Shown: positions 3,058-32,000 of the stretch, piece by piece
Numbering within the stretch: position 1 is the first letter of the stretch
Layout: each line of letters opens with the position of its first letter
Source of the DNA: Pirellula staleyi DSM 6068
GTDB taxonomy: Bacteria; Planctomycetota; Planctomycetia; Pirellulales; Pirellulaceae
Direction of reading: 5' to 3'
Length of the DNA: 32,000 nucleotides
Assembly (NCBI GenBank): GCA_000025185.1
Contig: CP001848.1
Coordinates: 1,350,001-1,382,000, forward strand
Translations under genes and position numbers: made by a program
The notes under the pieces: model-generated
Told to the model about the DNA's origin: nothing
Seen by the model: the letters and a program-made list of their open reading frames with translations, nothing else
Database searches by the model: none

Positions 3058-3089
3058 GAACCTTGGGTTTGTCGAATTAGGACGGTTGG

Positions 3090-10269: not shown

Positions 10270-13161
10270 TTACGACGTCGATGGCGAACTTGTTGATGAA
10301 CTGGGAGGCGTGGCAGCGGCCGCGCTGCTGCCCGCCACTTTACCGACCACAAACTTCCCCTCGATCAGCCGCAATTCGCGCACTGGGCGTCCATAGAGGA
10401 GCTCGGTCATTTTCTGTTTCAGCGGGGTAAGTTGCTCATAGACTTCCACCGTTGCGCCGCTGGCGAGCAGTAGCAACAGCTTCTCGAGCGAGCAGTCGAG
10501 TGACAGATGTTTGAGTCCAAAACGTTCCGACAGCATCGTGACATCGGCCAGCAGCTGCGCCGCTTGAGGATGGTGATCTTCACTTCGATAGACAGCGGCT
10601 TGCGCCAGCTGCGCCGGGAGGATCATCTCGAGGAGCCCTGTTTTGCGCGCGAGTGTGCCGGCTTGCTGCACATGCTTGCGCGCCTCTTCGCGATAACGCC
10701 AATCTCCCGAATGAGCGCGGAGCGCGAGGTAGAGTCGTCCAAGAACAAAACGATAGCCAGCCGCGATGGCAAAATCGTGTGGCGCAACATCATCGATCTC
10801 GCGCCAGGCAGTTTTTTCGGCAAGCGGAAAATTACCCGAGTCGAAGACTGCTTCGACATGCCAGTGCTCGGCCCCCAAGAGATGCGACGACTCGCGCGGA
10901 ATCGACATCGCAAGCTTGTAGCGTTCGATCGCTTCGGCAAACTTCCCTTTCAGATGCAGCACGCGAGCTGTCAGCATCACGGCATCGCGAAACAGCTGCT
11001 TCTGTTTCGCCAGGTCGGGTAGCGCCACAAGTTCATTCACACGGCAGGTGGCATCTTTGACACGTCCTGCCAGCAGCAGTTGCTGTGCGAGTTCGATCAG
11101 CAGGTGCGGAACAAGTTCCAGGTTCCCCCCTTGCTCGTCGCTAGGTAACTTCGCGCGCTCGAGGTGACGCGTTGTCGTGGCAATCGCTTCCGAGAATCGT
11201 CCCGCGCTTCGCAGCGCATGCCGATGGAGCTGAGCAACGCGCCACTGATCGCTCGCCGATAGCCCAGCGCGAGGTAGCTGCGTGGTAGGGTCGATCAACA
11301 GCTCCAGGGCTCCCGCGCGATAACAAAAATCGCGCACCGTTTCGAGTTTCAAAACATCCTCCTGCTGCCAGAGTGCAGCGAGGAACGACTCGTGCCAGGC
11401 CGAGTGATAATCGCCTGCCTCAGTCCGGTGCTGCATCGCGCGGAGCAGCGTGGCGATACGTGGAGGAGTGATCGGCCCGTCGGACTTTTGGAGCTGAAGC
11501 TCTTCGGCTAGCCAGCGGTGGAGCTGTGCACCGCGAGAGGACTCCAGTGGTGCCTGACGACGCAAAAATGCCTCGCGCGCGACGCGCTGTAGCACCACGA
11601 GCTGCGTGGCCGGATGCGCGACGATTCCTGCCCCGCGCAGCTGCGCGAGAATCGCGCGGAGCTTTGTGCCGTCGAGCTGCACCAGCGTAGCACCCCACGG
11701 TTGCTGCTCAGCGGAAACATCGCTATTAGCCTGGAAATCCCGGCGTAAATGCCCGAGTAGGTTCTCGATCGTCGTGACTTCGAGCGGCTGATCGGCGCAT
11801 GCCAGTAGCGATAACAATTCGGTGATAGCGGGTTGATTCCAGGCCTCGAGCAGTTCCTGCAGCAGCCCATCGATTAGCTGGTCGAGCGGGATCGACGTCA
11901 GCCGCTGCGCGTGGCGTTTGAGCGTTGCCGGGAAACTGCCACGAGCCGCGCGGCACGCAGCGATCAAGCGCGCGGCGATGAAGTGACCCGACGCGGCGGC
12001 AGCAGCATCGTCGATTTCGCTACTCGTGACCGGGTAGCGCAGTTTTGCCAGCAGCTCGCGGCTGTCGGGCTTCGCAACGCGGTCGACCTGGATCGTCGAA
12101 AGGCCCTCCCCTTCCCACGGCGCAAGATCGGCCAAAGGCTGCTTGGAGATCACAATGCAGAGCCCATTGTGAGCGTGCAGCAATTTGCGGAGCAGCATTA
12201 AGAGCGCATCGTCGGCAATGCGCGCAGTCCCATGCTCGTCGGCGCGCAGCAAGTGGTCCAGACCATCGATCACTAGCAGGGTTCGTTCCTCTTGCAGTAG
12301 TCGCGCAAGACGTGCACCGGTTTCCCACCAAGCTTCGGGCGCGTCTTCGACATCGCTCAAAAATTGCCGGAGCGCGAAGCAGAACTCGTCGGCTGAATGA
12401 TGTCCCCCCGCGCGCTGCTGTTCGTCGAAAGACCAGCAAAACAGACGTTCCGCGCCGCGCCATGCTTCCCGACTGAGCAGTGCCAAAAAATGCGCGACGA
12501 GCGAGCTTTTCCCAACCCCCAACTCGCCGACGAGATTCACCACACGTGTGCCGGGCTCCATCCAAGCGACACCGAGTTGATGCAGCAGAATTTCTCGCTC
12601 GACCGATTCCGCTGCGACCAGTGCATGCCGAAAATTACCGAGCATCAGTTGCGATTCGGGAAGTGCACTCCACGCGAGTTCACTTGGCATTGCTCCGATA
12701 TGCACCAGGTGTCCCACCGCGCGGCGAGCGATGTAGGCCATGGCGCGATATGCCTCGCGCAGGTCGCGCTTCTCGAGTGGCTGCTGAAGTTCGCGCGACA
12801 CCTGCACCGTCACCGTCTCGGGCAACAGTCCCCAGGGACAATCCTTCAGAATGACTGGGAGAAATTCGGTATCGCCTGTTTGACCACGTGTCACTTTCAC
12901 GTTGGCCCGAATCACGAGTCGAGGGAGCGCTTCCTTCATCATCGCGCGCGATGCCAGAAAGTCGGGCGACACAAGCAGGATCGCGAGCCGTGCGCTCTCG
13001 ACCCCACGTAGTCCCTCGGCTGTCAGCCGCCCCGCTTCATCGGCGGTAGCGAGTCGCACATGCTCGCGCCCTAGTCCCAGGGCGAGCAAATGATTGGCAA
13101 TTAGCGTGGGCCATTTGGTGTCCCATTCATTCGAGCAGAGAAGAATTAGGGGATCGCTCAT
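10270..13161 (-). CDS. TIR-like domain / P-loop STAND NTPase / TPR-like helical repeat protein (963 aa)
   Basis: N-terminus LILLCSNEWD...ARLAILLVSPDFLASRAMMKEAL matches the TIR_2 pattern. Walker A GELGVGKS at nt 12505-12528. Walker B LLVIDGLD at nt 12256-12279. Long helical-repeat C-terminus. Confidence 0.8.
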   Translation of the reverse strand: MSDPLILLCSNEWDTKWPTLIANHLLALGLGREHVRLATADEAGRLTAEGLRGVESARLAILLVSPDFLASRAMMKEALPRLVIRANVKVTRGQTGDTEFLPVILKDCPWGLLPETVTVQVSRELQQPLEKRDLREAYRAMAYIARRAVGHLVHIGAMPSELAWSALPESQLMLGNFRHALVAAESVEREILLHQLGVAWMEPGTRVVNLVGELGVGKSSLVAHFLALLSREAWRGAERLFCWSFDEQQRAGGHHSADEFCFALRQFLSDVEDAPEAWWETGARLARLLQEERTLLVIDGLDHLLRADEHGTARIADDALLMLLRKLLHAHNGLCIVISKQPLADLAPWEGEGLSTIQVDRVAKPDSRELLAKLRYPVTSSEIDDAAAAASGHFIAARLIAACRAARGSFPATLKRHAQRLTSIPLDQLIDGLLQELLEAWNQPAITELLSLLACADQPLEVTTIENLLGHLRRDFQANSDVSAEQQPWGATLVQLDGTKLRAILAQLRGAGIVAHPATQLVVLQRVAREAFLRRQAPLESSRGAQLHRWLAEELQLQKSDGPITPPRIATLLRAMQHRTEAGDYHSAWHESFLAALWQQEDVLKLETVRDFCYRAGALELLIDPTTQLPRAGLSASDQWRVAQLHRHALRSAGRFSEAIATTTRHLERAKLPSDEQGGNLELVPHLLIELAQQLLLAGRVKDATCRVNELVALPDLAKQKQLFRDAVMLTARVLHLKGKFAEAIERYKLAMSIPRESSHLLGAEHWHVEAVFDSGNFPLAEKTAWREIDDVAPHDFAIAAGYRFVLGRLYLALRAHSGDWRYREEARKHVQQAGTLARKTGLLEMILPAQLAQAAVYRSEDHHPQAAQLLADVTMLSERFGLKHLSLDCSLEKLLLLLASGATVEVYEQLTPLKQKMTELLYGRPVRELRLIEGKFVVGKVAGSSAAAATPPSSSTSSPSTS

Positions 13162-13360
13162 GAACCATCTCCCTTAGCGAGATTGATGGTTCTAGCAAGC
13201 TTTCGTAAAGAGCCGGTGAAGGTTTGGCGACGGTCGCTCGCGAAGCAGAGTGCGCAGAGGACGATTCACACCACAGCTGCATGCAGCTAGAGGCCCGCAC
13301 GCTTTTTCTGTAGAAGCGGATGCTTAGTCAATTTCCGCTTGGAAGACTTGTTGCCGCGCG

Positions 13361-15517
13361 CTAGTTTTGAAGGAAATCGGGAAGGTAGCCCCCCGATTCG
13401 GTAGCAGGCGACTGCTTGCGCTTCGCCGCTTGCTCCGCTTCCCGCAGCGCCAGGTAAGAGCCCTGCATCAGCCGATCTTCGCGCCCTTCACCCGCTTGCA
13501 CCACGATGGCCGACTCGCTGAGGAGTTTCTTCTCGGCGACATTGATGGCATAGCAACGTGTTTGGCAAAGTCCACAGCCGACGCACTTGTCAGCTACGAC
13601 GCTGGGAGCCAAAAATCCGCTCGATTCAATCGGCTCGCCTTGGGCATCGACTTGTGTACCAACTCGCACAAACTCAATTGCGTGATAGCCGGCCGCGATG
13701 CAATCGTCGACGCACAGCTGACAGGCTTCCTTACCCGCGTGCGGCAGGCAGGTTTGCAAATCGACAATCGCGAGCCCCATTCGCGCGACACGTTTTTCCT
13801 CGAGCGGAATCGCGCGAATCGCACCTGTCGGACAAACCTGACCGCAGGCATTGCAGCTCGATTCGCACCCGGCCCAATCGGGCTTGGCGGCCGGTGTCCA
13901 CAACCCTTCCAGCCCTTGCTCGAATCCGAGCGGCTGTAAAACATTGTTCGGGCATGCCTTAAAACATTCGCCACAGCGAATGCACAGGTCGAGGAACTGC
14001 GGCTCGGGTACACTTCCCGGTGGTCGAATGGGAAGCAGCTGAGGATCGCTCGTCAGATCAGCTCCCAGCACTTTCGTGGCGATGGTGAGCGATGTGGCCC
14101 CCACAATCGTGGCGGCTGAACCAGCAGCGAGCGACAAAAATCCGCGGCGTCCGAGTGCCGTTTCGTGCGTCGGTGGATCGTTCTCCACTTTCAGCTGAAT
14201 CAAGTTCCAGCGCTCGACAAACTTGATCGCTTCGGTCGGACAAACCCCAGCGCAGGTCTGGCACAGCGTGCAGTCGGTGGTTCGCGTGGTGAAGTCGGGC
14301 TTGATCGCATCGAACGGACAAATTTGCACACACTTGTTGCAGTGGATACAGCTCGATTCGACCTTCCGCTCCGTAGCGCGAAACAGATTCGATACCGAGA
14401 AGACCGCCCCACTCGGACAGACATACTTGCACCAAAACCGAGGCCGCAGAAAACCGAGCCCCAGCACGACAGCAAACATCGCCAGCGAAAGAAAATGCCC
14501 CGCCGAAGGTGCCGGCACATTGTGCCAGCCGCGCGAGGCTGCAGTTTGCAGCGGCTCGAACAGGAACAGCATCCCGCGCGTGATGACCGGAATCGCCGCA
14601 AAATAGCCACTCACCAAAACGCCGAACACCGAGCAGAGGAGCGTTCCCGCGAGCAGGTAGTACTTGATATGCACCCACCAACCATCCTCGGCGACTCGAA
14701 AGCGCTTGACGCGCTTACCGATCCCCCAGTCGAACAGATCGATCAGGGTCCCGAGCGGGCAGAGATAGCCGCAGAAACCTCGCGGAACGAGGATCGCAAC
14801 CACTAAGATTCCGATTGCCGAGACGAGCGACCAAACCCAAGTCCGACCGGCAATAGCGGTCGAGATCGCCACCAAAGGATCGATCACCAGCAGACTCTCG
14901 GCATGCAGCAACTCTTTCGAAGCGAGCGAGTCGGCATAGTGCGACGGCCAGGCATCAGGGGCCGTTTCCGAAAGGGTCCAGGGTCCTCCGGGATCAAACT
15001 GCAGTTCCTCGAGTTTCTCCGCCGGAAAATCAGGTTCGGCAGCGAGCACGAGCGACTCGTTTTGCACCTCGCGCACTGTGACCGGACCTAGCAGCGCAAG
15101 CTTTCCCGTCGCGGGATCGGCGCTCGATACAAAGTACCGCTGCAAGGGCCGAATCCCGACGAGCGCGCCAGGCTGGGCGGTGATCGCGATCGTCTGGTCC
15201 TCGGCAGGAGCAGCGGGCGCAAGGCCGGGCCAAACCTGCGCCGGACGCGCCGAGTAGGGCCACGCAACGTAGAAGAAAAGGAACAGAAACAGCAGAAAGA
15301 AAACTGTTTGCACCACACGGCGCACCGGCGCGGAGAGCCAACTCGGACCGAGTCGCTTCAGCCACTGCCGCACCAGCCCCGGTTTGGCTGTCGCACGATC
15401 GGAAAACAGAGCCGCCGGCAGGATCTGCTTAGCGATGCGCACTAGCAGTGTGTCGGGCTTGAGCTCGGTCCCCTTCTTCGGTTTTCGCAAGAAGGGGAGA
15501 AACATATCGAGTCGCAT
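13361..15517 (-). CDS. Membrane polyferredoxin, NapH-like (CX3CP x2 + 2 [4Fe-4S]) fused to a NapG-like poly-[4Fe-4S] module
   Basis: FCGYLCP (nt 14756-14773) and FWCKYVCP (nt 14414-14431) CX3CP motifs within TM helices. CIHCNKCVQICP, CTLCQTCAGVCP. Internal twin-arginine-like RRGFLSLAAGSAATIVGA (nt 14078-14152). Then CIRCGECFKACP, CNACGQVCP, CQLCVDDC, CVGCGLCQTRC. Confidence 0.85.
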   Translation of the reverse strand: MRLDMFLPFLRKPKKGTELKPDTLLVRIAKQILPAALFSDRATAKPGLVRQWLKRLGPSWLSAPVRRVVQTVFFLLFLFLFFYVAWPYSARPAQVWPGLAPAAPAEDQTIAITAQPGALVGIRPLQRYFVSSADPATGKLALLGPVTVREVQNESLVLAAEPDFPAEKLEELQFDPGGPWTLSETAPDAWPSHYADSLASKELLHAESLLVIDPLVAISTAIAGRTWVWSLVSAIGILVVAILVPRGFCGYLCPLGTLIDLFDWGIGKRVKRFRVAEDGWWVHIKYYLLAGTLLCSVFGVLVSGYFAAIPVITRGMLFLFEPLQTAASRGWHNVPAPSAGHFLSLAMFAVVLGLGFLRPRFWCKYVCPSGAVFSVSNLFRATERKVESSCIHCNKCVQICPFDAIKPDFTTRTTDCTLCQTCAGVCPTEAIKFVERWNLIQLKVENDPPTHETALGRRGFLSLAAGSAATIVGATSLTIATKVLGADLTSDPQLLPIRPPGSVPEPQFLDLCIRCGECFKACPNNVLQPLGFEQGLEGLWTPAAKPDWAGCESSCNACGQVCPTGAIRAIPLEEKRVARMGLAIVDLQTCLPHAGKEACQLCVDDCIAAGYHAIEFVRVGTQVDAQGEPIESSGFLAPSVVADKCVGCGLCQTRCYAINVAEKKLLSESAIVVQAGEGREDRLMQGSYLALREAEQAAKRKQSPATESGGYLPDFLQN

Positions 15518-20773: not shown

Positions 20774-21505
20774 ATGAAACGAAATCAGGCGATATCCATG
20801 AGCACTTCAACCTTGAGAACATCGCAAGCCCCCAGGAAGCAGCAAGTGTCGGAACCACGAAAGATTTTGCTAAGGCCGCGTGCTCTGGCGCTGCTGATGA
20901 TGCTTGGAAGCCTGGCGCTGGGAGGCTGTTTCTCCCCGCCTCCGCCAAGCGAGCCGCCGCCGGCTGTCGAGAGCGAGTCCACCGATAGCCCAGCGCCAGC
21001 AAAAGCAGCGGAAGCCGCAACGGATCCAGCTGCTGAAGAGGCTCCGCCAAAGCCTGACAGCGAAACCGCTCCGCCTCCAGCGAGTGCGGGTGCAGAGGAT
21101 CCCGGCGCTGGTCAGCCGCCAGCGGCCAGCGGTGCTTCGAAAAACGACAAGTCGGGTCCCCAGGATCGCCCGAGTGGGATGGGACGCTCGCAAGCTGCTG
21201 CTGGAGATTTCGCGAGTTCGGCAGCTAAGGAGGCTGATAGCAAGCTGAGCCTAGCGGAAAGCGCGCGCTTAGCCGCGCAAATGCGCGCGAAAGCGCGTGA
21301 GCTGCAAGCCACCAATCCCGGCCAGGCGTTCGAGGCGGCACTGCGTGGCTGGCAGCTGACCTCGCGTTTTCCGGACGACCCGGCATGTGCTGCCATGCAT
21401 GGCGAGTTTGGTCGCATGCTCGACCTCCTGGGGACTCAAGCCAACAGCGGCCTAGGTGGTAGCACTCCCCCCTTACGAGCAAACGCCGAAACAATCATCG
21501 AATAG
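20774..21505 (+). CDS. Putative lipoprotein with acidic/Pro-rich low-complexity linker and small helical C-terminal domain
   Basis: Signal peptide ending in the lipobox LALGGC. Starts 6 nt after the stop of the preceding gene. An alternative start at the internal Met (MSTSTL) is possible. Confidence 0.65.
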   Translation: MKRNQAISMSTSTLRTSQAPRKQQVSEPRKILLRPRALALLMMLGSLALGGCFSPPPPSEPPPAVESESTDSPAPAKAAEAATDPAAEEAPPKPDSETAPPPASAGAEDPGAGQPPAASGASKNDKSGPQDRPSGMGRSQAAAGDFASSAAKEADSKLSLAESARLAAQMRAKARELQATNPGQAFEAALRGWQLTSRFPDDPACAAMHGEFGRMLDLLGTQANSGLGGSTPPLRANAETIIE

Positions 21506-21706
21506 CCATCATTATATGATTAGTAGTAAGTATCGATTTGAGATGCGTGAAGCAATGTTTGTGACTAATACCTAAATAAAAAATAACAATAGATTGAAGC
21601 TGCGGAGTGCATTGAGATCAAACTTATATCGCGTTCCTACGATACTCCCCACCGAATCTTCTGCCTGCACTAGCCCACCACCAACTTCCTGCAATAGCGA
21701 CCCACC
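21506..21706 (+). promoter_or_regulatory. AT-rich intergenic region, probable promoter for the GTPase sub-operon
   Basis: The 21506-21640 stretch is far more AT-rich (by eye about 30 % GC) than the about 62 % GC flanks and contains an aaataaaaaataacaa A-tract. It lies directly upstream of 21710. No sigma-factor motif is assigned. Confidence 0.35.
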
Positions 21707-21709
21707 GTG

Positions 21710-23002
21710 ATGTCGACGAAAGCCCCGCGCCAAGATCTACCGCGCAGCGATGACGTGAAAATTCGATTGCGTATCACCTGTCCGCATTGCTGGTCGAACT
21801 TTGCGACCGAAGATGTGCACTGGCTCACCGAGCACGAACTGCTGCGCGGCGATCCGATGCTTGGGCCCGATGCTCAGCAACGATTCTTGCCGACACGTTT
21901 CGACGTCGCCGGAAATGCCATCGATTCGAGCGGCATGACCTGCCAGAGCCTTGCCTGTCCTAAGTGCCATCTCACTTTGCCTCGCGTAATGATTGATATG
22001 GCCCCGGTATTTGTTTCGATCCTGGGAATTCCCTCGTGCGGCAAGTCCTATTTCTTGTCGTCGATGACGTGGCAGATGCGGCGCACTCTGCCACACTACT
22101 TTGCCATCGACTTTAGCGACGCCGATCCCGCCTCGAACGAAATCCTGAATCAGTACGAGCGACAGCAGTTTTTAAACGCTGATTCGCGTGCGATTGTGAA
22201 GCTCGACAAAACCGAAGAGCAAGGATACTGGTACGACGCGGTGCGTTATGGCGATCAGATCGTCAACTATCCGCGTCCTTTTCTCTTCGGGCTGCGACCT
22301 TTGTTTGGGCATCCCAGTTTTGAGAATCGGAGCGATGTCTCGCGCGTTCTCTGCATGTACGACAACGCGGGCGAGTCGTTTCAGCCCGGCAAAGATACAT
22401 CGGCCAACCCCGTCACGCGTCACTTGGCCCGTTCTCAAGCGATGCTGTTTCTATTTGATCCCACGCAAGACCATCGATTTCGCGCAGCGTGTGTCGGTCG
22501 CTCATCCGACCCGCAAATGACCTCCACGCGGGCTCAAGTCTATCGCCAAGATACCGTGCTTCACGAAGCAGCATCACGCGTGCGCAAATACACAGGACTT
22601 AAACACGACGAGCGTCATAATCGACCTTTAATTGTGGTTGTCACGAAATACGATGCTTGGGAACCGCTTCTCCCTGGTTTGTTAGATACACCTCCCTTCT
22701 TGCCGCAAAAGAGTGGTGCGGCTCATGCACTCGATTGGGAGCGTGTACGTGAGACCTCGGCGAAGCTTCGTCACCTCCTTTGGCAGCACTCGCCCGAATT
22801 GGTATCTGGGGCTGAAGCGTTTGCTCAAGAGGTGGTCTATGTGCCCGTCAGTGCCACCGGCTGTGCTCCGGTCACCAATGAGCAAGGAGCAATCGAGGGG
22901 ATGCGCACCGGAGATATCCAGCCGAAGTGGGTCGAGGTGCCGATGCTGGTGGTCCTCGCGCGATGGTCGAAAGGTCTGATTCCTTATAATCGTCGGACTT
23001 AG
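21710..23002 (+). CDS. Zn-ribbon-fused P-loop GTPase (TRAFAC-type, all G motifs present)
   Basis: CPHC...CPKC (nt 21779-21964). G1 GIPSCGKS (22025-22048). G3 DNAG (22361-22372). G4 TKYD (22643-22654). G5 SAT (22850-22858). Confidence 0.85.
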   Translation: MSTKAPRQDLPRSDDVKIRLRITCPHCWSNFATEDVHWLTEHELLRGDPMLGPDAQQRFLPTRFDVAGNAIDSSGMTCQSLACPKCHLTLPRVMIDMAPVFVSILGIPSCGKSYFLSSMTWQMRRTLPHYFAIDFSDADPASNEILNQYERQQFLNADSRAIVKLDKTEEQGYWYDAVRYGDQIVNYPRPFLFGLRPLFGHPSFENRSDVSRVLCMYDNAGESFQPGKDTSANPVTRHLARSQAMLFLFDPTQDHRFRAACVGRSSDPQMTSTRAQVYRQDTVLHEAASRVRKYTGLKHDERHNRPLIVVVTKYDAWEPLLPGLLDTPPFLPQKSGAAHALDWERVRETSAKLRHLLWQHSPELVSGAEAFAQEVVYVPVSATGCAPVTNEQGAIEGMRTGDIQPKWVEVPMLVVLARWSKGLIPYNRRT

Positions 23003-23058
23003 AAGGCGCTACTCACTGACGGTTGTACTTCATTGAATGTTCGGGAGAGGCTTGTTGT

Positions 23059-25593
23059 ATGTCGCAGGAGATTATTTATACATCCGCACCACAAGGCTTA
23101 CGCCCAGGTAGTTTTGGGTTTTGTATTGTGGCGATGACAACCGGAATGCCCACGCCTTTGGCCGAGCGGCTCGAGTCGTTGTCGGGGTATCGCCATGTCT
23201 ATTCCCCTGGCGATCCGCGCGCGGTGAATAATCCTGTCGTCCATTCGCATGTGCAGCTGAAGATCGGTGCTCAAAAGTATTTTGTCCTCTCGCGACTCGC
23301 AGACGCTGGTTTCGACTATTCGCAGCGCACCAACAAGCTGGTGCATCATGTGGCTCTCGAGCCATCAGAGCTGGTTCCGGCGGGACCAGCTTGGGTTCTT
23401 TCGCAGCCCGGATATATGGTCACCTCGTTCAGCGGACAGCCCCATTTGCTTCCGGCGGGACGTCGCACACCAGCGGGCGAGATTCCGCGCACCGTTTGTC
23501 ATCGCTGGGGAGAGTTGACCGGCGATCCAGGTTGGGGTGCGGTGCTGGCTTCGAGCGCGCTCACCGGGGGAGCACTCACGCCTGGTGCGGGACGCCCGGT
23601 CCATCTGATTGTTCCCGAGGGGCTCGATCCCTTGCCGCTGATCGTCGAAGCGCAGTCGCTTCTCCCTTCCCAGCGGCGCTGGGAGGTTTCGTTCTCCACC
23701 TTCTTCACACGCTTGCCCCCCGGCGTCGAGTGCCAGTGGCGCTGTGTCCTGGCGGGAACTCCCGAGGCGACCGCGCTGGCCGGAATGCGTGGCGATTTGG
23801 TGATCGATCTCACGCGTCCTCTCGGTCCTGCTCCCGACACTCCCCTCTCCGCTGCAGCCCGCACTGGCGTGTTTCCAGCCGAGCCTGCTCCAACCACTCG
23901 GGCGATTCCGACGACACAGGCAGCTCCGGTGCAGCTGGCTCGACCGGTGCGCGAGTCGGCTGCGGAGGAACTCCGTTTGGGGCCACCTCCGGCACCCGGC
24001 GGCGCAAGAGCTCGCACCAGCAGCAGCGGCGTGATGATCATCGACGACGGCCCCCCCGAGCTTCCTGGCGAAACGACTCCACCCCCGATGACGAGCCTCC
24101 ACCGACGAAGCGCGCCGTCCGCTGGATTTGGTTGGTCGCATCTGACAGCGGTCGCCATGGTGGCTGCGTTGGTGGGTGTGGTGGTGGGCTATCTTTTCCG
24201 TTCCTCGCAAACCGATCCCGCCCCGATCGCCACCCAAACAGCCGCCCCTGCAATTCCCGCTACCGACAACCAGCCCCCTGCTCCTCCCGCTGCAGCGGCT
24301 CCCGACCCTCAGCCTCCCGCCATGCCTTCACCAGCACCACCCGCTACTCCACCAGTCTCGCCAGTAGGTGAGAAGAATACGGCCAACGCCGAGAATCCGG
24401 CGTCAAAAAGCCCTACTGGCGATACTACTCCTGCGGCAGCAAATGGCGGGACTGCTCAGCCGATGCCCGCTGCAGAGAATCCGCCCACGCCATCAGTTCC
24501 CACGCCTGTCCCTGCACCCCCGGCGGTCGTCGAACTGAAGTACGGCCCCGAACCCCTCGAGTCGATCCTGGCGCTGAAGCATGGATCAGACCCGCGTGAG
24601 ATCAAGCTGGCTAGTTTTCCAAAATCAGACGGGAGCGCAATATCCAAGATTGAGCTTCTGGGCGCACCAAAGTCACTACGCATTGAGAAATCAAAGGATA
24701 ACTCTTGGGTGGTGCAGTTTAACAACGGAACAAAAATCGGGAGTGACATACCAACGGCCGAGTTTACTCAGGTCGAAGAAGGTAGTAGTTTCGCGCTGAT
24801 GGCATCTCAGCGGACGCCTGGAGTAGCATGGAATGATCTATGTGGTAGCGTGATTCAAGTGATTCACGAAAAAGGTCAAGAACATATCCTTTATCTAGTC
24901 AAGCCACATTTAGTTGTTACTAAACAAGGGAAAATATCGCCCTGTTTTGTGGAGTATAACATGCCTTATCTAGAGCTGATGGATAGGTTTGACAAAGAAC
25001 TTTTCTTTGATGTGTCTGATATACACATTGAAACCATTCCGAGTGGCAATTGGAAATCAGCTACGAAGGGCAGATGGCAGCATACATATGTATGTCATAA
25101 TGCGACTGAGATAGACACTCAGGTAGAGGCAGAATTCAGTGGGCAGCCTCGAAAAACAACAAAGATAGCAATTCGCGTGCGATTTCATCAGAAAGATTCA
25201 ACGAAGCTACTCGATGAAAATGCAATTCAGGACATCGGCAATCGGTTATCAAACTACAGGAAAGTATTTCTAGATGAGTGGGAGAAGGCAAAGCTAGACA
25301 GAGATAATGCAGAAAAGGATTTCAATGCTGAAGCAAAGCCAGAAGAGAAAGAGAAGAAGCGACAAAAGCTTGATGTATTGAAAAATAAATTTATCGAGAT
25401 CGATAGCAGTCGCGAACGTTTCGATTCGGATTACCCCAAAATAATTACTACATCAGAGGGACGAGAGGTCATCGCTTCACTTAGTAAAAATGCCTCCGCT
25501 AAGTCAGCTCCTAGAGCTAAGGTAACGATTGGACGTGAGATCAAGACCGAGTCGCAAAGTATTAAGGTGCCTTATTTGTTACTTGTGGATTAG
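23059..25593 (+). CDS. Single-pass membrane protein with GAP1-N-like (GTPase-associated protein 1 N-terminal-like) cytoplasmic domain, Pro-rich linker and low-GC extracytoplasmic C-terminal module
   Basis: ATG at 23059 preceded by gggagagg. The N-terminus MSQEIIYTSAPQGLRPGSFGFCIVAMTTGMP...LSGY resembles the xxYTS..GL..G..GF opening of GAP1-N-type domains; this is from memory and unverified. TM at nt 24130-24198. C-terminal beta-rich domain plus Lys/Glu coiled coil. Confidence 0.75.
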   Translation: MSQEIIYTSAPQGLRPGSFGFCIVAMTTGMPTPLAERLESLSGYRHVYSPGDPRAVNNPVVHSHVQLKIGAQKYFVLSRLADAGFDYSQRTNKLVHHVALEPSELVPAGPAWVLSQPGYMVTSFSGQPHLLPAGRRTPAGEIPRTVCHRWGELTGDPGWGAVLASSALTGGALTPGAGRPVHLIVPEGLDPLPLIVEAQSLLPSQRRWEVSFSTFFTRLPPGVECQWRCVLAGTPEATALAGMRGDLVIDLTRPLGPAPDTPLSAAARTGVFPAEPAPTTRAIPTTQAAPVQLARPVRESAAEELRLGPPPAPGGARARTSSSGVMIIDDGPPELPGETTPPPMTSLHRRSAPSAGFGWSHLTAVAMVAALVGVVVGYLFRSSQTDPAPIATQTAAPAIPATDNQPPAPPAAAAPDPQPPAMPSPAPPATPPVSPVGEKNTANAENPASKSPTGDTTPAAANGGTAQPMPAAENPPTPSVPTPVPAPPAVVELKYGPEPLESILALKHGSDPREIKLASFPKSDGSAISKIELLGAPKSLRIEKSKDNSWVVQFNNGTKIGSDIPTAEFTQVEEGSSFALMASQRTPGVAWNDLCGSVIQVIHEKGQEHILYLVKPHLVVTKQGKISPCFVEYNMPYLELMDRFDKELFFDVSDIHIETIPSGNWKSATKGRWQHTYVCHNATEIDTQVEAEFSGQPRKTTKIAIRVRFHQKDSTKLLDENAIQDIGNRLSNYRKVFLDEWEKAKLDRDNAEKDFNAEAKPEEKEKKRQKLDVLKNKFIEIDSSRERFDSDYPKIITTSEGREVIASLSKNASAKSAPRAKVTIGREIKTESQSIKVPYLLLVD

Positions 25594-25664
25594 CCGTGAC
25601 GTTTGCGATGTGGTGGATGTCACAGGTCACGTAAGATTCAAGTAAATTTGTTAGTGAGTTGGTT

Positions 25665-28628
25665 ATGCTTGATTATCAGCGGATTGTGGAAGAGATTCAG
25701 GCGGCGATTCATTCGCAGGGCACGCTCGATTGGGATTTGCTGCGCGATGCGTCCGCCGAATATGCCGCTGCTTGCGACGAAGTGAACACCCGGCTCGAGC
25801 GGATCAGTAAGCTGCTGCGGCAAGGACTTCGAAGCGAGGCGATTCAGCTCGCCGATTTGGAGCCCCCGCTGCTCGATTCAGCGGCAATCCTCGATTTTCC
25901 CGAGCTTCCCGAGTGGGTTCAGCTGCTGACGATCAACGGCATGGTTCCGCCCCCTGCGATTCGGATCGAAATTGCCAGCGATCTCAATGCGGCCTATGCC
26001 CTGGAAGCGCCGCTGATGGCGCATCTGAAATCGCACCGACTTCTGGCCCTCGCTCGTGCTCCCCTCACTGTCCGCATTCAAACCTTGCGACAGATTCACC
26101 GGGCCGATGCGCATAACCCGATCTGGGCCACTGATCTCACGATCCTAGAAACTGCGCGACAAACCGAGGTCGCCCGGCAGGCTGAAGAGTGCACCACCAG
26201 TCGACACTTGCCAGCGCTCGAGCAACTTTGCCACGAGCTTGCCATGCCCGACTGGCTAGCGCAGCCACGTCGCGACTTCATCGATTCGATTGCCAGGCGC
26301 CGCGATCGTTTGGTGGTCGTACAGGCTCGCGAGAAACTGGAGGCGATCGAAGGGGAACTCGCCAACTGCTATGGCGCGTTCGATGTCGCAGCTGGTCGTG
26401 CAGCGCGCGACGCTTGGAATAGGGAAGCGGCCAAGGCGGGACTCTTGGCCGACGATCCACTGGCTCAAGCGGCAACTCCCGCACTCGCCTGGCTCGCCGA
26501 ACAAGATCGTCGCGAAGCGCGGGATCGCGAGTTCGCAATCGCTGTCGATAACCTCGAGCGGGCACTCGAAGAAGAAAAAGATCGCGCGACACTCACGCGT
26601 CTGTTTCACGCTATAGAACGGCTCGAGCAACGTCCTCCCGATCTCTTGTTGCGGCGCTATCACGAACAGATGCGGCAGTTCGAAACCGATCAGCGGCGCC
26701 GCTTTGTTCTGATCACCTCTGCCACCGTCCTCGCCTTGCTGCTTGTTGCCGGTGGGATCAGCTGGGTGGCAATCCGGGCGAGCGAACACCGCCGCATGCT
26801 CGCGACAGCAGAACAGCTACGTCAGCTGATTGATAGCTCGCAGTGGAAACAGGCGTCTGAGCTTTTGGCGCAGCTGCAAGTCAGCGACCCGCGTATCGCG
26901 CAGGCGACCGAAATTCAGTCGCAAAATGTTCGTCTGCAGGAGCTCGAAAAAGCGGAGTCCGAACGTCGTGCGGCGTTCGAGCAGTATCTGCAGCAGGCAC
27001 GCAGCTCCGATCCCGAGCGCCCCGATCGTCTGGCGCTCTCGGAGGCCAAAAAGGTGGCCATCGGAGCTGCAGAGAAAGCCGACGTTGCTCGACTCGAGTC
27101 CGAGTTTGCCAGTCTCGATCGCGCTCGGCAACAAAAGCGAGATTCCGAGTTCCAAGCTTCGCTGGAAACGATTTTGTTCGGAGTTGAGAAGGTCGAGGCG
27201 ACGCTGGCCGACGATCCGGTTGCGCCAGTCAAGGAGCTCGCGCAGCTGGTTGCTGAGATCGATGCACTTGGGAAAAGTACCGGTGGTGTCTCGACCTCTT
27301 TGATCGCGCAGCTGGCACCACTCAAGCTGCGGCTCACGTCGCTTCAGCAGCAGCGTGCGGCGCGTATGGACGAGTATCGCGCGCTCGAACAGTTGACGAC
27401 GCATATTGGTCAGCCCGAGGCCTACCAAAGTGCGCTGCAGAAGTTTGTCGAGAAGTTTCCGACATCGCCGCTGGCGATAGAGTTTGCACGAACGACAGCC
27501 GAACTGCCGTACTGGGAAGTGCAGGAGCGGTGGCGAAAACTACTTGGACAAAAGGCCTTTCGAAGCTTGCCTAACGTCCAGCCGCTCGAGGCTGCCAAGC
27601 TCCTCGAGGAGGCGAATGAAATTCAGCTGTTTGGTCAGCCATCGCCACTCGCTGAAAAGTTTGATGCGAAGCGAAAGTATCTGCAAGGAATCGCCGACCG
27701 ACTAGACGACGATGGTCAGCCGATTGTGAAACAGCTCGATGAAGTCTTTAAAGATGTGTTCATCACGGGACTTTGGTACGTCGAAGCAACGGGTGGCGAT
27801 CGCTATTACTTGTCAAAAAGTTTCGAGCAGTATCTTGCAAAACCGGGTGAAACGATTGGATTTGAACATATCGTTTCATTTGACTTGCAAACGCTGACGA
27901 AGCGACACCCAAGAAGCGGGATCGCGCGGCATGGTACGGCGCCGCAAGCAGCTTTAGCGAGCGCCGCGCGAACGCATCTGGCGATCGTCACCAACGGCGA
28001 TTGGGAGAAAGGGATGTATGGTCTGCTCCGCGCGACACTCGACGACAGCGAGACCGATCCGCTGCTGAAGTTCATCTTGGTGCAGCGCATTTTGGAGACA
28101 GCCGAGACAGGGAGTCACTCCATTGCCGAAGCGCTGGGGCCTTCCATCGCGCGGGTGAAAGGGGCCGATGTCGATGTCACGGCCAACTGGCTCTTGCCGA
28201 CCGATGCAGCGGCAGCAGCAGCGCGGCTGAAAGCGCGAGCCCTCTTGGGATCGCTTAGCGATCTATCGAGCGAGGCGCGCAAAGCGGCAGAAATTCTGCG
28301 CGCTGATACGAGTCCCATCGAGGTTCCTCCGGAGTGGATTGGCGTGCTCGTTCCGATCGGCGAAGGACGCTGGAAATGCCTCGGAAGTCCGCAAGTAGCT
28401 GTGGGGGAACTCTATGTCATCGATCCGACTGCCGAGAAGTCGGCGGGTGGAATTTGGCAGCGCGTGGGGACTTACGATCGAGCCAAAACGACCTGGCAAA
28501 ACGGAACATCGAACTCGATGGCGGCGGGGCGACCCTTGTACTTGGTGACTCGGGGGCCGGGGGCGCTCAGCTCTCCTGCTGACCAGCCGAGTGAAGTTTC
28601 CAGCCGCCGTTCCGAGCGACTGCAATGA
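25665..28628 (+). CDS. Large all-helical single-pass membrane protein (987 aa): about 345-aa cytoplasmic helical domain, TM, about 615-aa extracytoplasmic helical/coiled-coil domain
   Basis: ATG at 25665 (MLDYQRIVEEI). TM FVLITSATVLALLLVAGGISWVAI at nt 26703-26774. Heptad-rich Ala/Glu/Arg/Gln sequence on both sides. No family recognised. Confidence 0.8.
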   Translation: MLDYQRIVEEIQAAIHSQGTLDWDLLRDASAEYAAACDEVNTRLERISKLLRQGLRSEAIQLADLEPPLLDSAAILDFPELPEWVQLLTINGMVPPPAIRIEIASDLNAAYALEAPLMAHLKSHRLLALARAPLTVRIQTLRQIHRADAHNPIWATDLTILETARQTEVARQAEECTTSRHLPALEQLCHELAMPDWLAQPRRDFIDSIARRRDRLVVVQAREKLEAIEGELANCYGAFDVAAGRAARDAWNREAAKAGLLADDPLAQAATPALAWLAEQDRREARDREFAIAVDNLERALEEEKDRATLTRLFHAIERLEQRPPDLLLRRYHEQMRQFETDQRRRFVLITSATVLALLLVAGGISWVAIRASEHRRMLATAEQLRQLIDSSQWKQASELLAQLQVSDPRIAQATEIQSQNVRLQELEKAESERRAAFEQYLQQARSSDPERPDRLALSEAKKVAIGAAEKADVARLESEFASLDRARQQKRDSEFQASLETILFGVEKVEATLADDPVAPVKELAQLVAEIDALGKSTGGVSTSLIAQLAPLKLRLTSLQQQRAARMDEYRALEQLTTHIGQPEAYQSALQKFVEKFPTSPLAIEFARTTAELPYWEVQERWRKLLGQKAFRSLPNVQPLEAAKLLEEANEIQLFGQPSPLAEKFDAKRKYLQGIADRLDDDGQPIVKQLDEVFKDVFITGLWYVEATGGDRYYLSKSFEQYLAKPGETIGFEHIVSFDLQTLTKRHPRSGIARHGTAPQAALASAARTHLAIVTNGDWEKGMYGLLRATLDDSETDPLLKFILVQRILETAETGSHSIAEALGPSIARVKGADVDVTANWLLPTDAAAAAARLKARALLGSLSDLSSEARKAAEILRADTSPIEVPPEWIGVLVPIGEGRWKCLGSPQVAVGELYVIDPTAEKSAGGIWQRVGTYDRAKTTWQNGTSNSMAAGRPLYLVTRGPGALSSPADQPSEVSSRRSERLQ

Positions 28629-29667
28629 ACGTGGCGAATCGAATGTTTCAGGGGGGCCACTGTTCCCCCTCACCACTCCCCACCGAACCTCCTTCCACCC
28701 CCGACGTGCTCCATTGACCGATCAGTTTTACATTCGAATTCGTGGGCGTGTGCAAGGCCCGTTTGATAGCGAAAAGTTACGTGGACTCGCGCGGCGTGGC
28801 CAGTTCAGCAGGCTCTATGAAGTCTCGCGCGATGGCCAAACATGGCAGCCAGCGAAGGACTTTCCCGAACTCTTCGCGGCACCAGCAGCGCAGGTTGCGC
28901 AGCCAGCAGCAGCGCAAACCACTGCGGCTCCCTCCGCTGCATCGTCGAAGGGGAACTCGGCATCCAGCGGTGGAGGATACAGCTTACAATCCCCCGCGCC
29001 GCAAAACGCAACGAGCGCGGCCACTTGGTACTACGCCTATCAAGGTCGCGAGCAAGGACCGATCGATTTTAACACGCTGGCCAGCATGTTCAGCTCACGG
29101 CAGTTAGCGCCGGAAACTGAGGTCTGGAGTCAGGGGATGATCAACTGGACTCCGGCCCAAAACGTGCCCGGCCTCGTACCGCCACAAGCGCCGACCAAGA
29201 GCAGCATGGGAGTGAGTTCCTATAGCACCGAGAGTGTCCGTAGCGAAACCGAACAGGTCTCGGCCGCGACCATCCGCGCACTGACCGACTCGAGACCTTG
29301 GGTCGCGTTCATTGCGATCATCGGATTCCTCTACGCCCTTCTGACCCTCCTCAGCGGCGTGTTTCAGCTGATCGTTGGAGCAAGGTCGGGCGTATTTCCA
29401 GTCACTGCGAGTGGACTCACGACGATTGTGATGTCACTGGTGATTGCCTTCGGTGCTTGGCTGCTGGTGAGTTTCGGAAGTGCCATTTCGAACGTCGAAC
29501 GCTCGCGCCGTGAGGCGTCTCTCGTTCGGGCTTTGTCGACACTCAAATCCTTTTGGGTTTATATCGGCGTGGTCTTAATTGTCATCCTTACGTTTGTGAT
29601 TCTAGGAGTCATTCTCGTTATTTCAGTCGCAGGGACGATTGCAGGGTCCTTTCCCGAGCTTGATTGA
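28591..29667 (+). CDS. Double GYF_2-domain protein with polytopic membrane C-terminus (true start possibly TTG at 28714)
   Basis: GYF_2 no. 1 FYIRIRGRVQGPFD...GQTWQPAKDFPELF (nt 28723-28875). GYF_2 no. 2 WYYAYQGREQGPID...VWSQGMINWTPAQNVPGL (nt 29026-29175). At least 3-4 hydrophobic helices in the last 130 aa. The GTG at 28591 would overlap the upstream gene by 38 nt. Confidence 0.8.
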   Translation: MKFPAAVPSDCNERGESNVSGGPLFPLTTPHRTSFHPRRAPLTDQFYIRIRGRVQGPFDSEKLRGLARRGQFSRLYEVSRDGQTWQPAKDFPELFAAPAAQVAQPAAAQTTAAPSAASSKGNSASSGGGYSLQSPAPQNATSAATWYYAYQGREQGPIDFNTLASMFSSRQLAPETEVWSQGMINWTPAQNVPGLVPPQAPTKSSMGVSSYSTESVRSETEQVSAATIRALTDSRPWVAFIAIIGFLYALLTLLSGVFQLIVGARSGVFPVTASGLTTIVMSLVIAFGAWLLVSFGSAISNVERSRREASLVRALSTLKSFWVYIGVVLIVILTFVILGVILVISVAGTIAGSFPELD

Positions 29668-29747: not shown

Positions 29748-30638
29748 GTGGCTTCAAGTTATGAGACGGCACTCGCCGCAAAAACGCTTGCCGATCATCC
29801 GGCGCTCTGCTGGTCCCGGATGGACCTCGAGCAGCGGGTCGGATTTCGTGGCGGCCGATTCACAAAAGTGAACAACTGGCTGGCTTTTTTGATCGCGGCG
29901 GTGGCCACCGTTCTCTTCTATACGGTGGTGATTGTTGCCCGGCAATTTCCGTTCACCCATTCGATGCGCGGTCTGCTCGACTCGTTCACCGATCGCGGTC
30001 CAACCCCTTATGCGATCGTCGCGTTTTCCTGGTGGGCGATTGCGATCCTCCTACTGAAGTGGCGGAAGCTTGCCTTTCAAAAACGATCGCTCACCTATGA
30101 CGTGGTCCCTCGCGATCACGATTTTGTCCTTTCCATTCCAACAGCCGACCGTGTAATTGAGCATATGCATTTGGTAGCCGACGATCCCCGTCACTTTGTT
30201 CTTTATAACCGTATGATGATCGCCCTCTCGAACATGAAAAACCTGGGACGAGTCGCCGATCTTGATGAGATCCTCCGTTCGCAAGGGGAGCATGATGAGT
30301 CGTCGATGGAAACAAGCTACTCGCTGGTGCGCGGGCTTCTCTGGGCGATTCCGGTGCTTGGGTTCATCGGCACGGTGCTCGGACTTTCCGAAGCCATTGG
30401 CGGGTTTAGCAATGTCTTGACCACCGCTACCGACATCTCTTTGGTGCTCGATGCACTGAAGGTTGTTACGGCGGGACTCGCGACCGCTTTTGAAACGACA
30501 CTGCAGGCTCTGGTGGCTGCACTCGGCATTCAAATGCTCCTCACCTTTATCAAAAAGGGAGAAGAGGAATTTTTGGATCAGTGCAGCGATTACTGTATGC
30601 GGCGACTTGTGAGTCGTTTGCGTTTGTCCCCGACGTAA
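29748..30638 (+). CDS. MotA/TolQ/ExbB-family proton-channel protein
   Basis: Conserved C-terminal core LWAIPVLGFIGTVLGLSEAIGGF...GLATAFETTLQALVAALGIQMLL (nt 30321-30557), typical of MotA_ExbB. Two N-terminal TM helices precede a cytoplasmic insert. Confidence 0.85.
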   Translation: MASSYETALAAKTLADHPALCWSRMDLEQRVGFRGGRFTKVNNWLAFLIAAVATVLFYTVVIVARQFPFTHSMRGLLDSFTDRGPTPYAIVAFSWWAIAILLLKWRKLAFQKRSLTYDVVPRDHDFVLSIPTADRVIEHMHLVADDPRHFVLYNRMMIALSNMKNLGRVADLDEILRSQGEHDESSMETSYSLVRGLLWAIPVLGFIGTVLGLSEAIGGFSNVLTTATDISLVLDALKVVTAGLATAFETTLQALVAALGIQMLLTFIKKGEEEFLDQCSDYCMRRLVSRLRLSPT

Positions 30639-30653
30639 CGAAAGGATCGTGCG

Positions 30654-31484
30654 ATGGGACGACGTACCGCGCAAGCACCTTTCTCCCTCTTTTCGTTTCA
30701 AGACATCATCACCTCGGTCACCGGGATTGTGGTCCTGATGCTGCTGGTGATGGCGCTGGAACTCGCGAGCCGCAAGTTGCAAGCGCCAGCCGTGCAGCAA
30801 TCGATCACGCGCGAAGATACACGCGCTGCGCTCTCGGCGGCACAGACCAAAATCCAAGAGCTGCAGCGGATGCTCGAGTCGAGCGACTGGAGCGAGCTTG
30901 CCTCACGAACCCCGACCGAGTTTGCTATCGAACAGGAAGTTTTGACGCGGCAGATTCCCCTTCTGAAGTCCGATCTCGCCGCGGCCAAGCGTCGCGTCGC
31001 TGAGCTCGAGCGACAAGAAAAAGCTGCTCACGACCAGTGGAACGCTCGGGGTAAAGACCGCCAGCAGCTAGAACGAATGGAGGCCGAAATCGGGGCCCTC
31101 GAGGCGAAGCTGAAGAAAGTGCAAAAGTCGGGTACGCTGGTCTATCGCGCGGGGCCACGCGAGTCGCGACAGCCGTGGATCATCGAGTGTACGGCCGCTT
31201 CGATTAGCGCCGCTCCTTTGGGGCCGATATCGAAGCCACTGCAGTTTGTTGGGAGCGATTCTCTTTCGCGCATTCGTCAGGTCGAGGCCTGGGCCAAAGG
31301 CTTGTCGCGCAGCGAGGTCTATCTCGTTTTGATGGTGAAACCGGGCGGGGCTGAGACCGCAACCATCCTCGAGGAGAAGCTGCGCGATTTGGGACTCGGT
31401 GTCGGACTCGATCTTATCGGCAGCGATCAGGCGGCGATCGACCCCGAAGAAGGGGCACCAGTCGTCGAGGAGCCGGCTCGATGA
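30654..31484 (+). CDS. ExbD/TolR/MotB-like N-terminal anchor (Asp17 at TM edge) fused to a coiled coil and C-terminal globular domain
   Basis: FSFQDIITSVTGIVVLMLLV has an Asp at the cytoplasmic edge of a single TM (nt 30702-30704), the same arrangement as ExbD D25, TolR D23 and MotB D32. Followed by a heptad-rich segment. Starts 15 nt after the MotA-like gene. Confidence 0.7.
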   Translation: MGRRTAQAPFSLFSFQDIITSVTGIVVLMLLVMALELASRKLQAPAVQQSITREDTRAALSAAQTKIQELQRMLESSDWSELASRTPTEFAIEQEVLTRQIPLLKSDLAAAKRRVAELERQEKAAHDQWNARGKDRQQLERMEAEIGALEAKLKKVQKSGTLVYRAGPRESRQPWIIECTAASISAAPLGPISKPLQFVGSDSLSRIRQVEAWAKGLSRSEVYLVLMVKPGGAETATILEEKLRDLGLGVGLDLIGSDQAAIDPEEGAPVVEEPAR

Positions 31485-32000
31485 GGCGAAAAACACTCGA
31501 CACCAGCGACAGCCTGGAGCTGCTGCTCGACACCATCTCGAACGCCTTTGGAGGGATTCTGTTCCTCGCGCTGCTGGTCGGTTTACTGCTGCAAATGTCG
31601 CATCGCCCTTCAGCCCCGGTAGAAGTCGACCCCCAGGCAGAAGTGGAGATGATCGAGCTCGACGCCGCCTTGACCGAAGCACTTGCGCAACTGGAATCGC
31701 TCGAGCGCTCGGTTGCGCTGCAGCGGCAATCGCGCGAGCGATTGGTCGACCCCAGCACCGAGCAGATCGCCGCCGAGGTGCGCGCGTCGCGCGCCGAGGT
31801 TAGTGACCTCGAGAAGAAAATCGAGGCTGCCCGCAAGAGTGCCAGCACTACCCAGGTGGAGATCGACGCACTGCGCCGCAGTTCGACGGAGCTCGATAGC
31901 AAACTGGCCACAGCCAAAACCGATCAGGCGGAAGTTGCCAGTCGACTGAAGCGCGAGCAGCTGTTGCGTTCGCAAGTGATAGCGCCTCCCCGAACGCGTG
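31481..32000 (+). CDS. Second Asp-in-TM (Asp17) anchor + coiled-coil protein, 3'-partial (runs off the window)
   Basis: Not in the ORF track because no stop occurs in the window. My translation from the ATG at 31481 is open to 32000: MRRKTLDTSDSLELLLDTISNAFGGILFLALLVGLLL..., then coiled coil. The ATG overlaps the upstream stop (ATGA, 31481-31484). Asp17 codon at 31529-31531. Confidence 0.7.
   Translation, partial: MRRKTLDTSDSLELLLDTISNAFGGILFLALLVGLLLQMSHRPSAPVEVDPQAEVEMIELDAALTEALAQLESLERSVALQRQSRERLVDPSTEQIAAEVRASRAEVSDLEKKIEAARKSASTTQVEIDALRRSSTELDSKLATAKTDQAEVASRLKREQLLRSQVIAPPRTR

Follow-up and report, generated by a model that had tools for sequence, protein, structure and literature searches.

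We analyzed a 32,000-nucleotide (nt) stretch of the genome of Pirellula staleyi DSM 6068 (contig CP001848.1, positions 1,350,001 to 1,382,000; hereafter the window, whose coordinates are used throughout) and found the C-terminal module of one gene, Psta_1115, to differ between strains as a sharply bounded cassette. Psta_1115 encodes a GAP1-N2 protein, and a recombinational cassette replacement of its module, with the N-terminal domains kept, is well supported by the sequence comparisons. The module is unusually low in GC (guanine plus cytosine), which the original prediction, made from the letters of the window alone, had taken as the trace of a swap. As an explanation of the whole, we find it probable that the extracytoplasmic module of this protein is exchanged in the form of old allelic cassettes, that its low GC content is a standing property and that it has a role in sensing. 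The module would exist as at least two anciently diverged allelic cassettes within one species-level population, and homologous recombination would move these between genomes, with an 80-nt island at the end of a linker as the left arm and the start of the downstream gene as the right arm.

For the strain comparison, conspecific contigs were added through exact-protein look-ups of the GTPase and MotA proteins of the same operon (GCA_002483025.1, SRR845265, SRR28423922 and ERZ27292797). In loci L007/L010, L008, L011, L013 and L014, the alignment to the window stops at 24566|24567 and resumes at 25652|25653, and every conspecific contig reaching the region breaks and resumes at these same two coordinates. 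Over exactly 24567-25652, blastn gave no alignment to any conspecific locus. The flanks of the related loci are 96.3-98.6% identical to the window, and 97-100% identical outside the linker, with the cassette interval retaining about 45% nt and 30-33% amino acid (aa) identity to the other haplotypes. The protein P0062 shows the pattern within one gene, having three or four substitutions relative to the window protein over residues 1-413 and a module 30-33% identical; identities along its contig are given in Table 2. The original prediction had proposed this check, an alignment of orthologous loci for a conserved N-terminal part beside a variable C-terminal module, with mapping of the breakpoints. 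The 80-nt island is likely the left homology arm, with the left breakpoint at its 3' edge; in L003, a locus from another species, the island is not specially conserved at the nucleotide level.

The contigs with the alternative module (allele 2) represent four distinct haplotypes, L007 and L008 being identical and possibly sharing the same source data. These haplotypes differ by 0.9-1.5% in their flanks, about their distance from the window. Since their GAP1 genes, module included, are nevertheless 97.8-99.1% identical, the population holds two discrete allele classes and not a continuum. Allele 1 is found in the window only, every other sampled strain carrying allele 2, and exact look-ups of the 844-aa and 519-aa versions of the window protein gave no other contig with allele 1. 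L003 (Logan SRR33531176) has approximately 75% nt identity to the window, with 85% aa identity in the GTPase and 21% in the module; its module is about equidistant from the two alleles (identities 0.195 and 0.227).

Between alleles 1 and 2, the module has an aa identity of 0.30, a saturated proportion of synonymous differences (pS) of 0.79 and a proportion of nonsynonymous differences (pN) of 0.48. The spacer behind the gene has an identity of 0.32-0.43, and the synonymous divergence (dS) of the flanks is 0.015-0.05. With saturated pS in the module against such low dS in the flanks, the alleles are far older than the strains. We considered whether the module could have diverged in place, by extreme positive selection or by targeted hypermutation such as that of a diversity-generating retroelement, without recombination. 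The ratio of nonsynonymous to synonymous divergence (dN/dS) within allele 2 is indeed elevated in the module (0.5-1.1; the N part has 0.08-0.11 and the gene that follows 0.06-0.21), and the adjacent linker is hypervariable as well. However, synonymous sites and spacer are equally diverged beside flanks with dS of at most 0.05, and selection cannot accelerate synonymous and intergenic sites; ongoing hypermutation is contradicted by the low dS of the module among allele-2 carriers (0.013-0.017). A retroelement target was likewise rejected: the differences span 1086 nt including noncoding DNA and involve all base types instead of being limited to a short variable region, no template, module repeat or other repeat was found in 20-30 kb, and the scanned open reading frames (ORFs) contain no reverse-transcriptase domain. 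In-place divergence is thus exceedingly improbable.

The N part of the gene also has a history at odds with that of the module. At informative sites over 21640-24290, the window groups with the allele-2 carrier L007 at 19 sites and the alternative groupings have 5 and 5, and the window's N-part haplotype therefore appears joined to both module alleles. The informative sites downstream are mixed (21/12/10), a pattern that indicates a recombining population. Within the linker, L007 agrees with the window at the earliest positions that set it apart from L011 and L013 (~24298-24305), has private differences at ~24318-24323 and matches allele 2 from ~24345, consistent with a crossover inside the linker. 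Among allele-2 carriers, the linker (24298-24486) shows 10-11 nonsynonymous and 3 synonymous differences. Rooting the strain tree with L003, at a distance of 38%, was too noisy to polarize the swap.

Homologues of the module proved extremely rare. Among 1.84 billion representative proteins searched exhaustively with HMMER, P0062 (848 aa) and P0063 were the only ones, both of them GAP1 proteins with the same architecture; a search for the low-GC module elsewhere had been suggested by the original prediction. Neither the module by itself nor a three-sequence profile retrieved P0062 and P0063 in word-indexed protein searches, where the window's own protein was the sole match; for these two entries the index is evidently incomplete. 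The 342-residue module had no sequence match in Pfam, NCBIfam, PADLOC or the Protein Data Bank (PDB), and a scan of viral contigs gave no match. Contig scans, using the N part on genome contigs and the full-length alignment on metagenome contigs, found only the distant GAP1-N2 loci L004-L006, which were of use for comparing GC content. No further locus extending into the cassette came from look-ups of the p276 protein or of the GYF protein.

These searches also bear on the possibility of programmed in-genome switching from silent copies, through pilE/pilS-like gene conversion or a site-specific shufflon. The conserved 80-nt island at the left junction and the conserved right junction could anchor such conversion. 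Yet the exhaustive protein search gave only three orthologous genes, with no paralogous module-like ORF in P. staleyi or elsewhere, and no direct or inverted repeats, including a retroelement template or shufflon site, were found in 20-30 kb, nor any recombinase beside the locus in the 32 kb of DNA inspected. Moreover, four distinct strains all carry the same allele 2 with ordinary low diversity. We regard programmed switching as very improbable.

The cassette exchanged by recombination coincides with a drop in GC content. In sliding 120-nt windows, GC is 0.62-0.72 over 23460-24600, the N-terminal domain and Pro-rich linker being host-like as predicted, and 0.55 at 24540-24659; it then stays at 0.37-0.50 from 24600 through 25560-25679 and is back to 0.60 at 25680-25799. 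The hand counts behind the predicted abrupt drop at 24600-25700 match these values. With GC 0.433, the 1086-nt block 24567-25652 is the lowest of that length in the window; nonoverlapping windows of the same length elsewhere have a minimum of 0.489 and a mean of 0.579 (standard deviation [sd] 0.036), placing the block at z = -4.0. The drop lies inside one uninterrupted ORF (23059-25593, 844 aa) and takes in codons 503-844 and nearly the whole 71-nt spacer. The drop sits where the prediction placed it, over the last ~330 codons plus the spacer, with one small correction: GC recovers at ~25700, yet divergence from the relatives stops at 25652, and the low GC of 25653-25700 is part of the next gene's conserved start.

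Codon usage changes along with base composition. GC at third codon positions (GC3) falls in Psta_1115 from 0.64 in the N part to about 0.416-0.418 in the module. Recoding the module protein with the codon usage of the window's other genes gave an expected GC3 of 0.625, and 340-codon windows from those genes have a GC3 of 0.645 +/- 0.040 (minimum 0.562). The module is rich in K (10.5%), I (7.9%), E (8.5%) and D (6.4%), the preceding N part being P/A/G-rich and the linker before the module consisting of 29% Pro and 23% Ala. From amino acids alone, GC is expected to go from 0.649 in the N part to 0.507 in the module. About two-thirds of the GC drop is explained by the Lys/Ile/Glu/Asp/Asn-rich composition and about one-third by AT-shifted synonymous codons. 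A second low-GC3 stretch lies at 1435-4583, comprising a ComM/Mg-chelatase-like AAA+ gene (GC3 0.45) and a TerB-HIRAN protein gene (GC3 0.47), in comparison with 0.6-0.75 for most genes of the window; no related loci cover this stretch.

The composition of a Lys/Ile/Glu-rich domain could be all that the GC drop reflects, with vertical inheritance and no exchange. The expected decrease accounts for the larger share of the drop, and the orthologues do share the low-GC tail. Their phylogeny, however, is incongruent between flanks and module, the module is 30-33% identical between strains with flanks about 98.5% identical, and each of the three alleles has a GC3 0.21 lower than expected; amino acids alone therefore do not account for the drop. 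The original prediction had reserved a low-GC C-terminus with congruent phylogeny as the mark of such a composition effect, and only the shared low GC was found. As a full explanation, the composition-only account is refuted and its probability is next to nil; it survives as a partial contributor to the GC value.

If the module had recently been gained from a foreign source of low GC (a phage, a plasmid or a distant bacterium, for instance), the drop would be an unameliorated signature of that transfer. In favor of this, the boundaries are sharp, allele 1 has been seen in one genome only and its GC3 (0.416) lies over 5 sd lower than that of the other genes in the window. Table 1 argues otherwise. 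Allele 2, in four haplotypes, and the allele of the other species are equally low in GC and GC3 at the same domain boundary. In the distant planctomycete genes, whose hosts have 48-65% GC, GC3 drops after the transmembrane (TM) helix in 3/3 and GC drops markedly in 2/3 (L004 and L006). Because allele 2, the L003 allele and the distant genes share the drop, it is not the trace of a donor. The protein search found no homologue outside this clade's GAP1 genes, there was no viral match, and a scan of the window found no transfer RNA (tRNA), Rfam element, mobility genes or flanking repeats. Polymorphisms within allele 2 number 8 from strong to weak pairing bases (S>W) and 9 in the opposite direction (W>S), small counts with no sign of the AT-to-GC excess expected of amelioration. 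A foreign donor is improbable, and a genomic islet from a low-GC source was rejected given that the orthologues share the low GC and that tRNA, Rfam match, flanking repeats and viral match are lacking.

Table 1. GC and GC3 of the module in the window and in related loci; changes are for the module relative to the N part of the same gene. L004-L006 are full-length planctomycete GAP1-N2 genes with tails without detectable homology to the module.
Locus	Relation	Locus GC	Module GC	Module GC3	Change in GC	Change in GC3
Window	allele 1	0.576	0.432	0.418	-0.18	-0.22
L011	allele 2	0.568	0.439	0.405	-0.18	-0.24
L003	another species	0.565	0.461	0.438	-0.19	-0.24
L004	distant	0.483	0.431	0.506	-0.15	-0.11
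L005	distant	0.620	0.620	0.635	-0.03	-0.12
L006	distant	0.655	0.526	0.635	-0.16	-0.20

Low GC is thus a long-standing trait of a fast-evolving extracytoplasmic tail, neither the scar of a swap nor the sign of a low-GC donor. Of the predicted module swap, the exchange itself stands, through shared breakpoints, saturated synonymous sites and the incongruent N part, while GC as its trace does not, all alleles being low in GC. The AT shift of synonymous sites might result from exclusion of the segment from homologous exchange and from any GC-biased conversion that comes with it, or from weak codon selection on a rapidly turning-over segment. The case carries a methodological warning: a sharp fall in GC and GC3 within a gene matched the limits of a true recombination cassette exactly, but transfer was not its cause, and composition alone would have yielded the right answer for the wrong reason.

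A profile hidden Markov model of the three modules had no match among the tails of 61 planctomycete GAP1-N2 homologues, and alignment of the module with individual tails by hhalign gave no significant score (E = 0.03 for L006, 0.33 for L004 and 0.55 for L005). The L006 tail (7501-8520, aligned with window 24526-25590), from an 841-aa GAP1-N2 protein (JGI Ga0307374), has the same length and layout, running from a beta-rich part through a K/E coiled coil to a hairpin at the end, and its alignment, at an hhalign E of only 0.03, covers the motifs W...L(C/R)..V.KI...L..P. Deep homology of planctomycete GAP1 tails is possible and suggested by this resemblance, though unproven. The AlphaFold2 model of the module, of low confidence (predicted local distance difference test [pLDDT] 57), has a beta-rich N-terminal half followed by a long helical hairpin rich in K and E and, at the end, a beta-hairpin; no fold match to it was found in the PDB.

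The topology of Psta_1115 points to a role for the module outside the cell membrane. Since the N-terminal domains must meet the cytoplasmic GTPase and HRR precedes the TM helix, the protein would be N-in and C-out, making the module most likely extracytoplasmic. The module is the only dimorphic part of the operon. The GTPase and MotA proteins are 100% identical between allele backgrounds, and the 987-aa protein encoded next to Psta_1115 is 99% identical in allele-2 carriers, with seven scattered, conservative window-specific substitutions and no covariation with the module allele. The constancy of the partner proteins across allele backgrounds favors an external binding partner over one encoded in the operon, and we infer that whatever the module contacts lies outside the operon. 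With 99-100% identity in the GTPase, in GAP1-N2/M and in the partner proteins, as against a dimorphic tail, the tail is the likely specificity or sensing determinant. It probably forms the outward sensing or binding end, signaling to GAP1-N2/M and the GTPase switch on the cytoplasmic side of the membrane, and diversifying or balancing selection by an external antagonist or ligand probably keeps it diverse; a function as an extracytoplasmic sensor under diversifying selection is likely.

Several points weigh against this interpretation or limit it. The module dN/dS near 1 derives from few substitutions, 5-15 nonsynonymous and 3-4 synonymous, and could reflect relaxed constraint instead of positive selection. 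The functional role is drawn from topology and context only, the structure model with its pLDDT of 57 and lack of a fold match adding little. Allele 1 is known from one genome and no donor was found. The direction and timing fit a gain of allele 1 by the window lineage, a spread of allele 2 or a long upkeep of both. Finally, the small and balanced substitution spectrum within allele 2 bears on the AT shift of synonymous sites only in giving no sign of amelioration.

A bolder version can be put forward, which we consider rather unlikely: the module would be a balanced, trans-specific recognition polymorphism, serving as a phage-sensing receptor or as a self/non-self determinant of rosette-forming planctomycetes, and its divergence would bar homologous exchange and lead to a lower synonymous GC equilibrium, for instance if the segment escapes GC-biased gene conversion or codon selection. 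If true, the locus would mark the sensor end of an uncharacterized GTPase conflict system and provide a natural test of what maintains bacterial GC content.

The genes around the cassette are listed in Table 2. By its domain content, the operon is a DO-GTPase/GAP1/GYF operon and the planctomycete form of a GAP1-N2-type GTPase-centric conflict system. The GTPase match is marginal, and its translation, read directly, has CPHC...CPKC motifs and a GxxxxGKS Walker A motif; the protein is 100% identical in four other assemblies, and the order of GTPase then GAP1 is kept in all related loci. Pfam upheld the predicted GAP1-like nature of Psta_1115, with no match past GAP1-M even at E <= 10, although the library may hold no GAP1-C model; residues 254-350 are Pro-rich and of low complexity. 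The true start is the ATG at 23059, the homologues all opening with MSQE[IL]IYTSAP. The RefSeq version (WP_123784677.1, 519 aa from MIIDD) omits 325 N-terminal codons (23059-24033) and with them GAP1-N2 and GAP1-M, and database searches using it would miss the system assignment.

Table 2. Features of the Psta_1115 operon, with the nucleotide identity of the window to the contig encoding P0062 (L002/L011).
Feature	Coordinates	Strand	Evidence or content	Identity to L002/L011
GTPase gene and GAP1 N part, conserved segment	up to about 24297			97-100%
Zn-ribbon DO-GTPase, upstream partner of GAP1	21710..23002	+	Pfam DO-GTPase2, E 6.4e-6, 26.4 bits (cut-off 27), marginal
GAP1-N2 protein Psta_1115, 844 aa, ADB15798.1	23059..25593	+	Pfam GAP1-N2 and GAP1-M
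GAP1-N2 domain, residues 1-128, cytoplasmic	23059..23442	+	Pfam PF20013, E 2.9e-28
GAP1-M domain, residues 153-253, cytoplasmic	23515..23817	+	Pfam PF20014, E 4.1e-14
Single TM helix, residues 357-383	24127..24207	+	hydropathy scan
Pro/Ala-rich linker, hypervariable, host-like GC	24298..24486	+	60-70% identity to allele-2 carriers, 6-nt indel	60-70%, 6-nt indel
Conserved 80-nt island encoding ...PTPVPAPPAVVELKYGPEPLESI	24487..24566	+	~98% identity between allele classes	about 98%
Replaced low-GC cassette (module and spacer)	24567..25652	+	codons 503-844 of GAP1, stop codon, 59 nt of the 71-nt spacer	35-55%, not alignable by blastn
Right breakpoint, start of right homology arm	25653..25664	+	identity 100% again, 12 nt before next ATG	100% at junction, then about 98.6%
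987-aa single-TM protein, without recognized domain	25665..28628	+	ORF
Two GYF_2 domains fused to TM-rich region	28714..29667	+	Pfam GYF_2, E 8.4e-29, two stretches; TM segments
MotA/ExbB-family channel protein	29748..30638	+	Pfam MotA_ExbB, E 5.8e-9; weak PADLOC ZorA, E 9e-5

Downstream of the cassette, the 987-aa protein matched no Pfam (even at E <= 10), NCBIfam or PADLOC family. The GYF protein, with several hydrophobic segments within residues 194-316, corresponds to the accessory or effector component of planctomycete GAP1-N2 systems (PMC7159879, in the passages searched). The MotA/ExbB gene is conserved downstream in all related loci. Over 29748-32000, the GYF gene is followed in all related loci, that of the other species included, by genes for the MotA/ExbB protein, a 276-aa TM and coiled-coil protein and a protein of 303 aa, which may form a stator-like module of the same system. 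Upstream of the GTPase gene, an AT-rich intergenic region (21480-21660, GC 0.32-0.39) conserved in relatives is probably the operon promoter or a regulatory region; a scan of it for the sigma-70 consensus gave no match, and no terminator or promoter above shuffle expectation was found in the swapped spacer.

Two related loci have altered gene content. The conspecific contig L001 (Logan SRR28423907, 98.3-98.6% identical) lacks 5538 bp (window 23437-28974 versus L001 3798-3800). The deletion, with only GGA microhomology at its junction, takes out GAP1-M, the TM helix and the module, together with all of the 987-aa gene and the first part of the GYF gene, and fuses GAP1-N2 at codon ~126 in frame to the GYF protein, giving P0034 of 355 aa; this resembles a knock-out of the system that arose naturally. 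In L003, a frameshift near residue 140 interrupts GAP1 where N2 gives way to M (9616-10369), and the homologue of the 987-aa protein is called as two ORFs of 493 and 486 aa (12210-15188), reflecting either decay of the system or assembly error.

The undescribed module family with its three known members, the nucleotide-level breakpoints of a within-species cassette exchange and the recurrent GC3 shift in the GAP1-N2 tail all appear to be new, and we found no report of experimental characterization of the predicted DO-GTPase/GAP1 conflict systems. Among better-known loci, polymorphic toxin loci (CdiA-CT/CdiI, Rhs/YD-repeat tips) combine a conserved body with a divergent, often lower-GC C-terminal cassette, exchanged after a short conserved motif. 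The window locus likewise has a conserved body and a sharply bounded, hyperdivergent C-terminal cassette between strains. Unlike in these loci, there is no toxin family match in Pfam or PADLOC and no covarying immunity gene, the replaced block ending 12 nt before an unchanged gene and containing no credible ORF; and, unlike a secreted toxin, the module is the tail of a membrane-anchored regulator.

In the target-recognition domains of type I restriction-modification HsdS proteins and in phage tail-fiber or receptor-binding tips, specificity modules between conserved segments are swapped by homologous recombination, resulting in discrete, deeply diverged alleles. The allele classes within P. 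staleyi are of the same kind, although the GAP1 family is unrelated and no inversion system or duplicated half-genes lie nearby. As in Zorya, an anti-phage defense system whose ZorA/ZorB form a stator of the MotA/ExbB type, a MotA/ExbB protein followed by a small TM/coiled-coil protein stands directly downstream of the GAP1 operon; the resemblance is a family-level match only (PADLOC ZorA, as in Table 2), with no ZorC or ZorD, and is not part of the main finding.

The closest comparison is with the GAP1-N2-type DO-GTPase-centric conflict systems of Kaur, Burroughs, Iyer, Aravind 2020, eLife 9:e52696 (PMC7159879), again as portrayed in the passages searched. Unlike in the systems described there, Pfam detected no FNIII-repeat component in the window proteins, nor did it detect a GAP1-C domain, for which the library may hold no model, and those passages make no mention of within-species cassette exchange with mapped breakpoints or of a recurrent GC3 drop. 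They do describe GAP1 as often having C-terminal TM segments, extracellular domains and variable C-terminal fusions, and planctomycete variants in which a GYF-pair protein fused to a TM-rich region takes the place of the FNIII protein. The window matches these in its Zn-ribbon DO-GTPase followed by a GAP1-N2/GAP1-M protein with a TM helix and predicted extracellular tail, and in a linked GYF-pair/TM protein. Variable GAP1 C-termini have thus already been described for the GAP1-N2 class (PMC7159879), and the evolutionary behavior of this one resembles that of polymorphic-toxin tips or specificity-domain shuffling.

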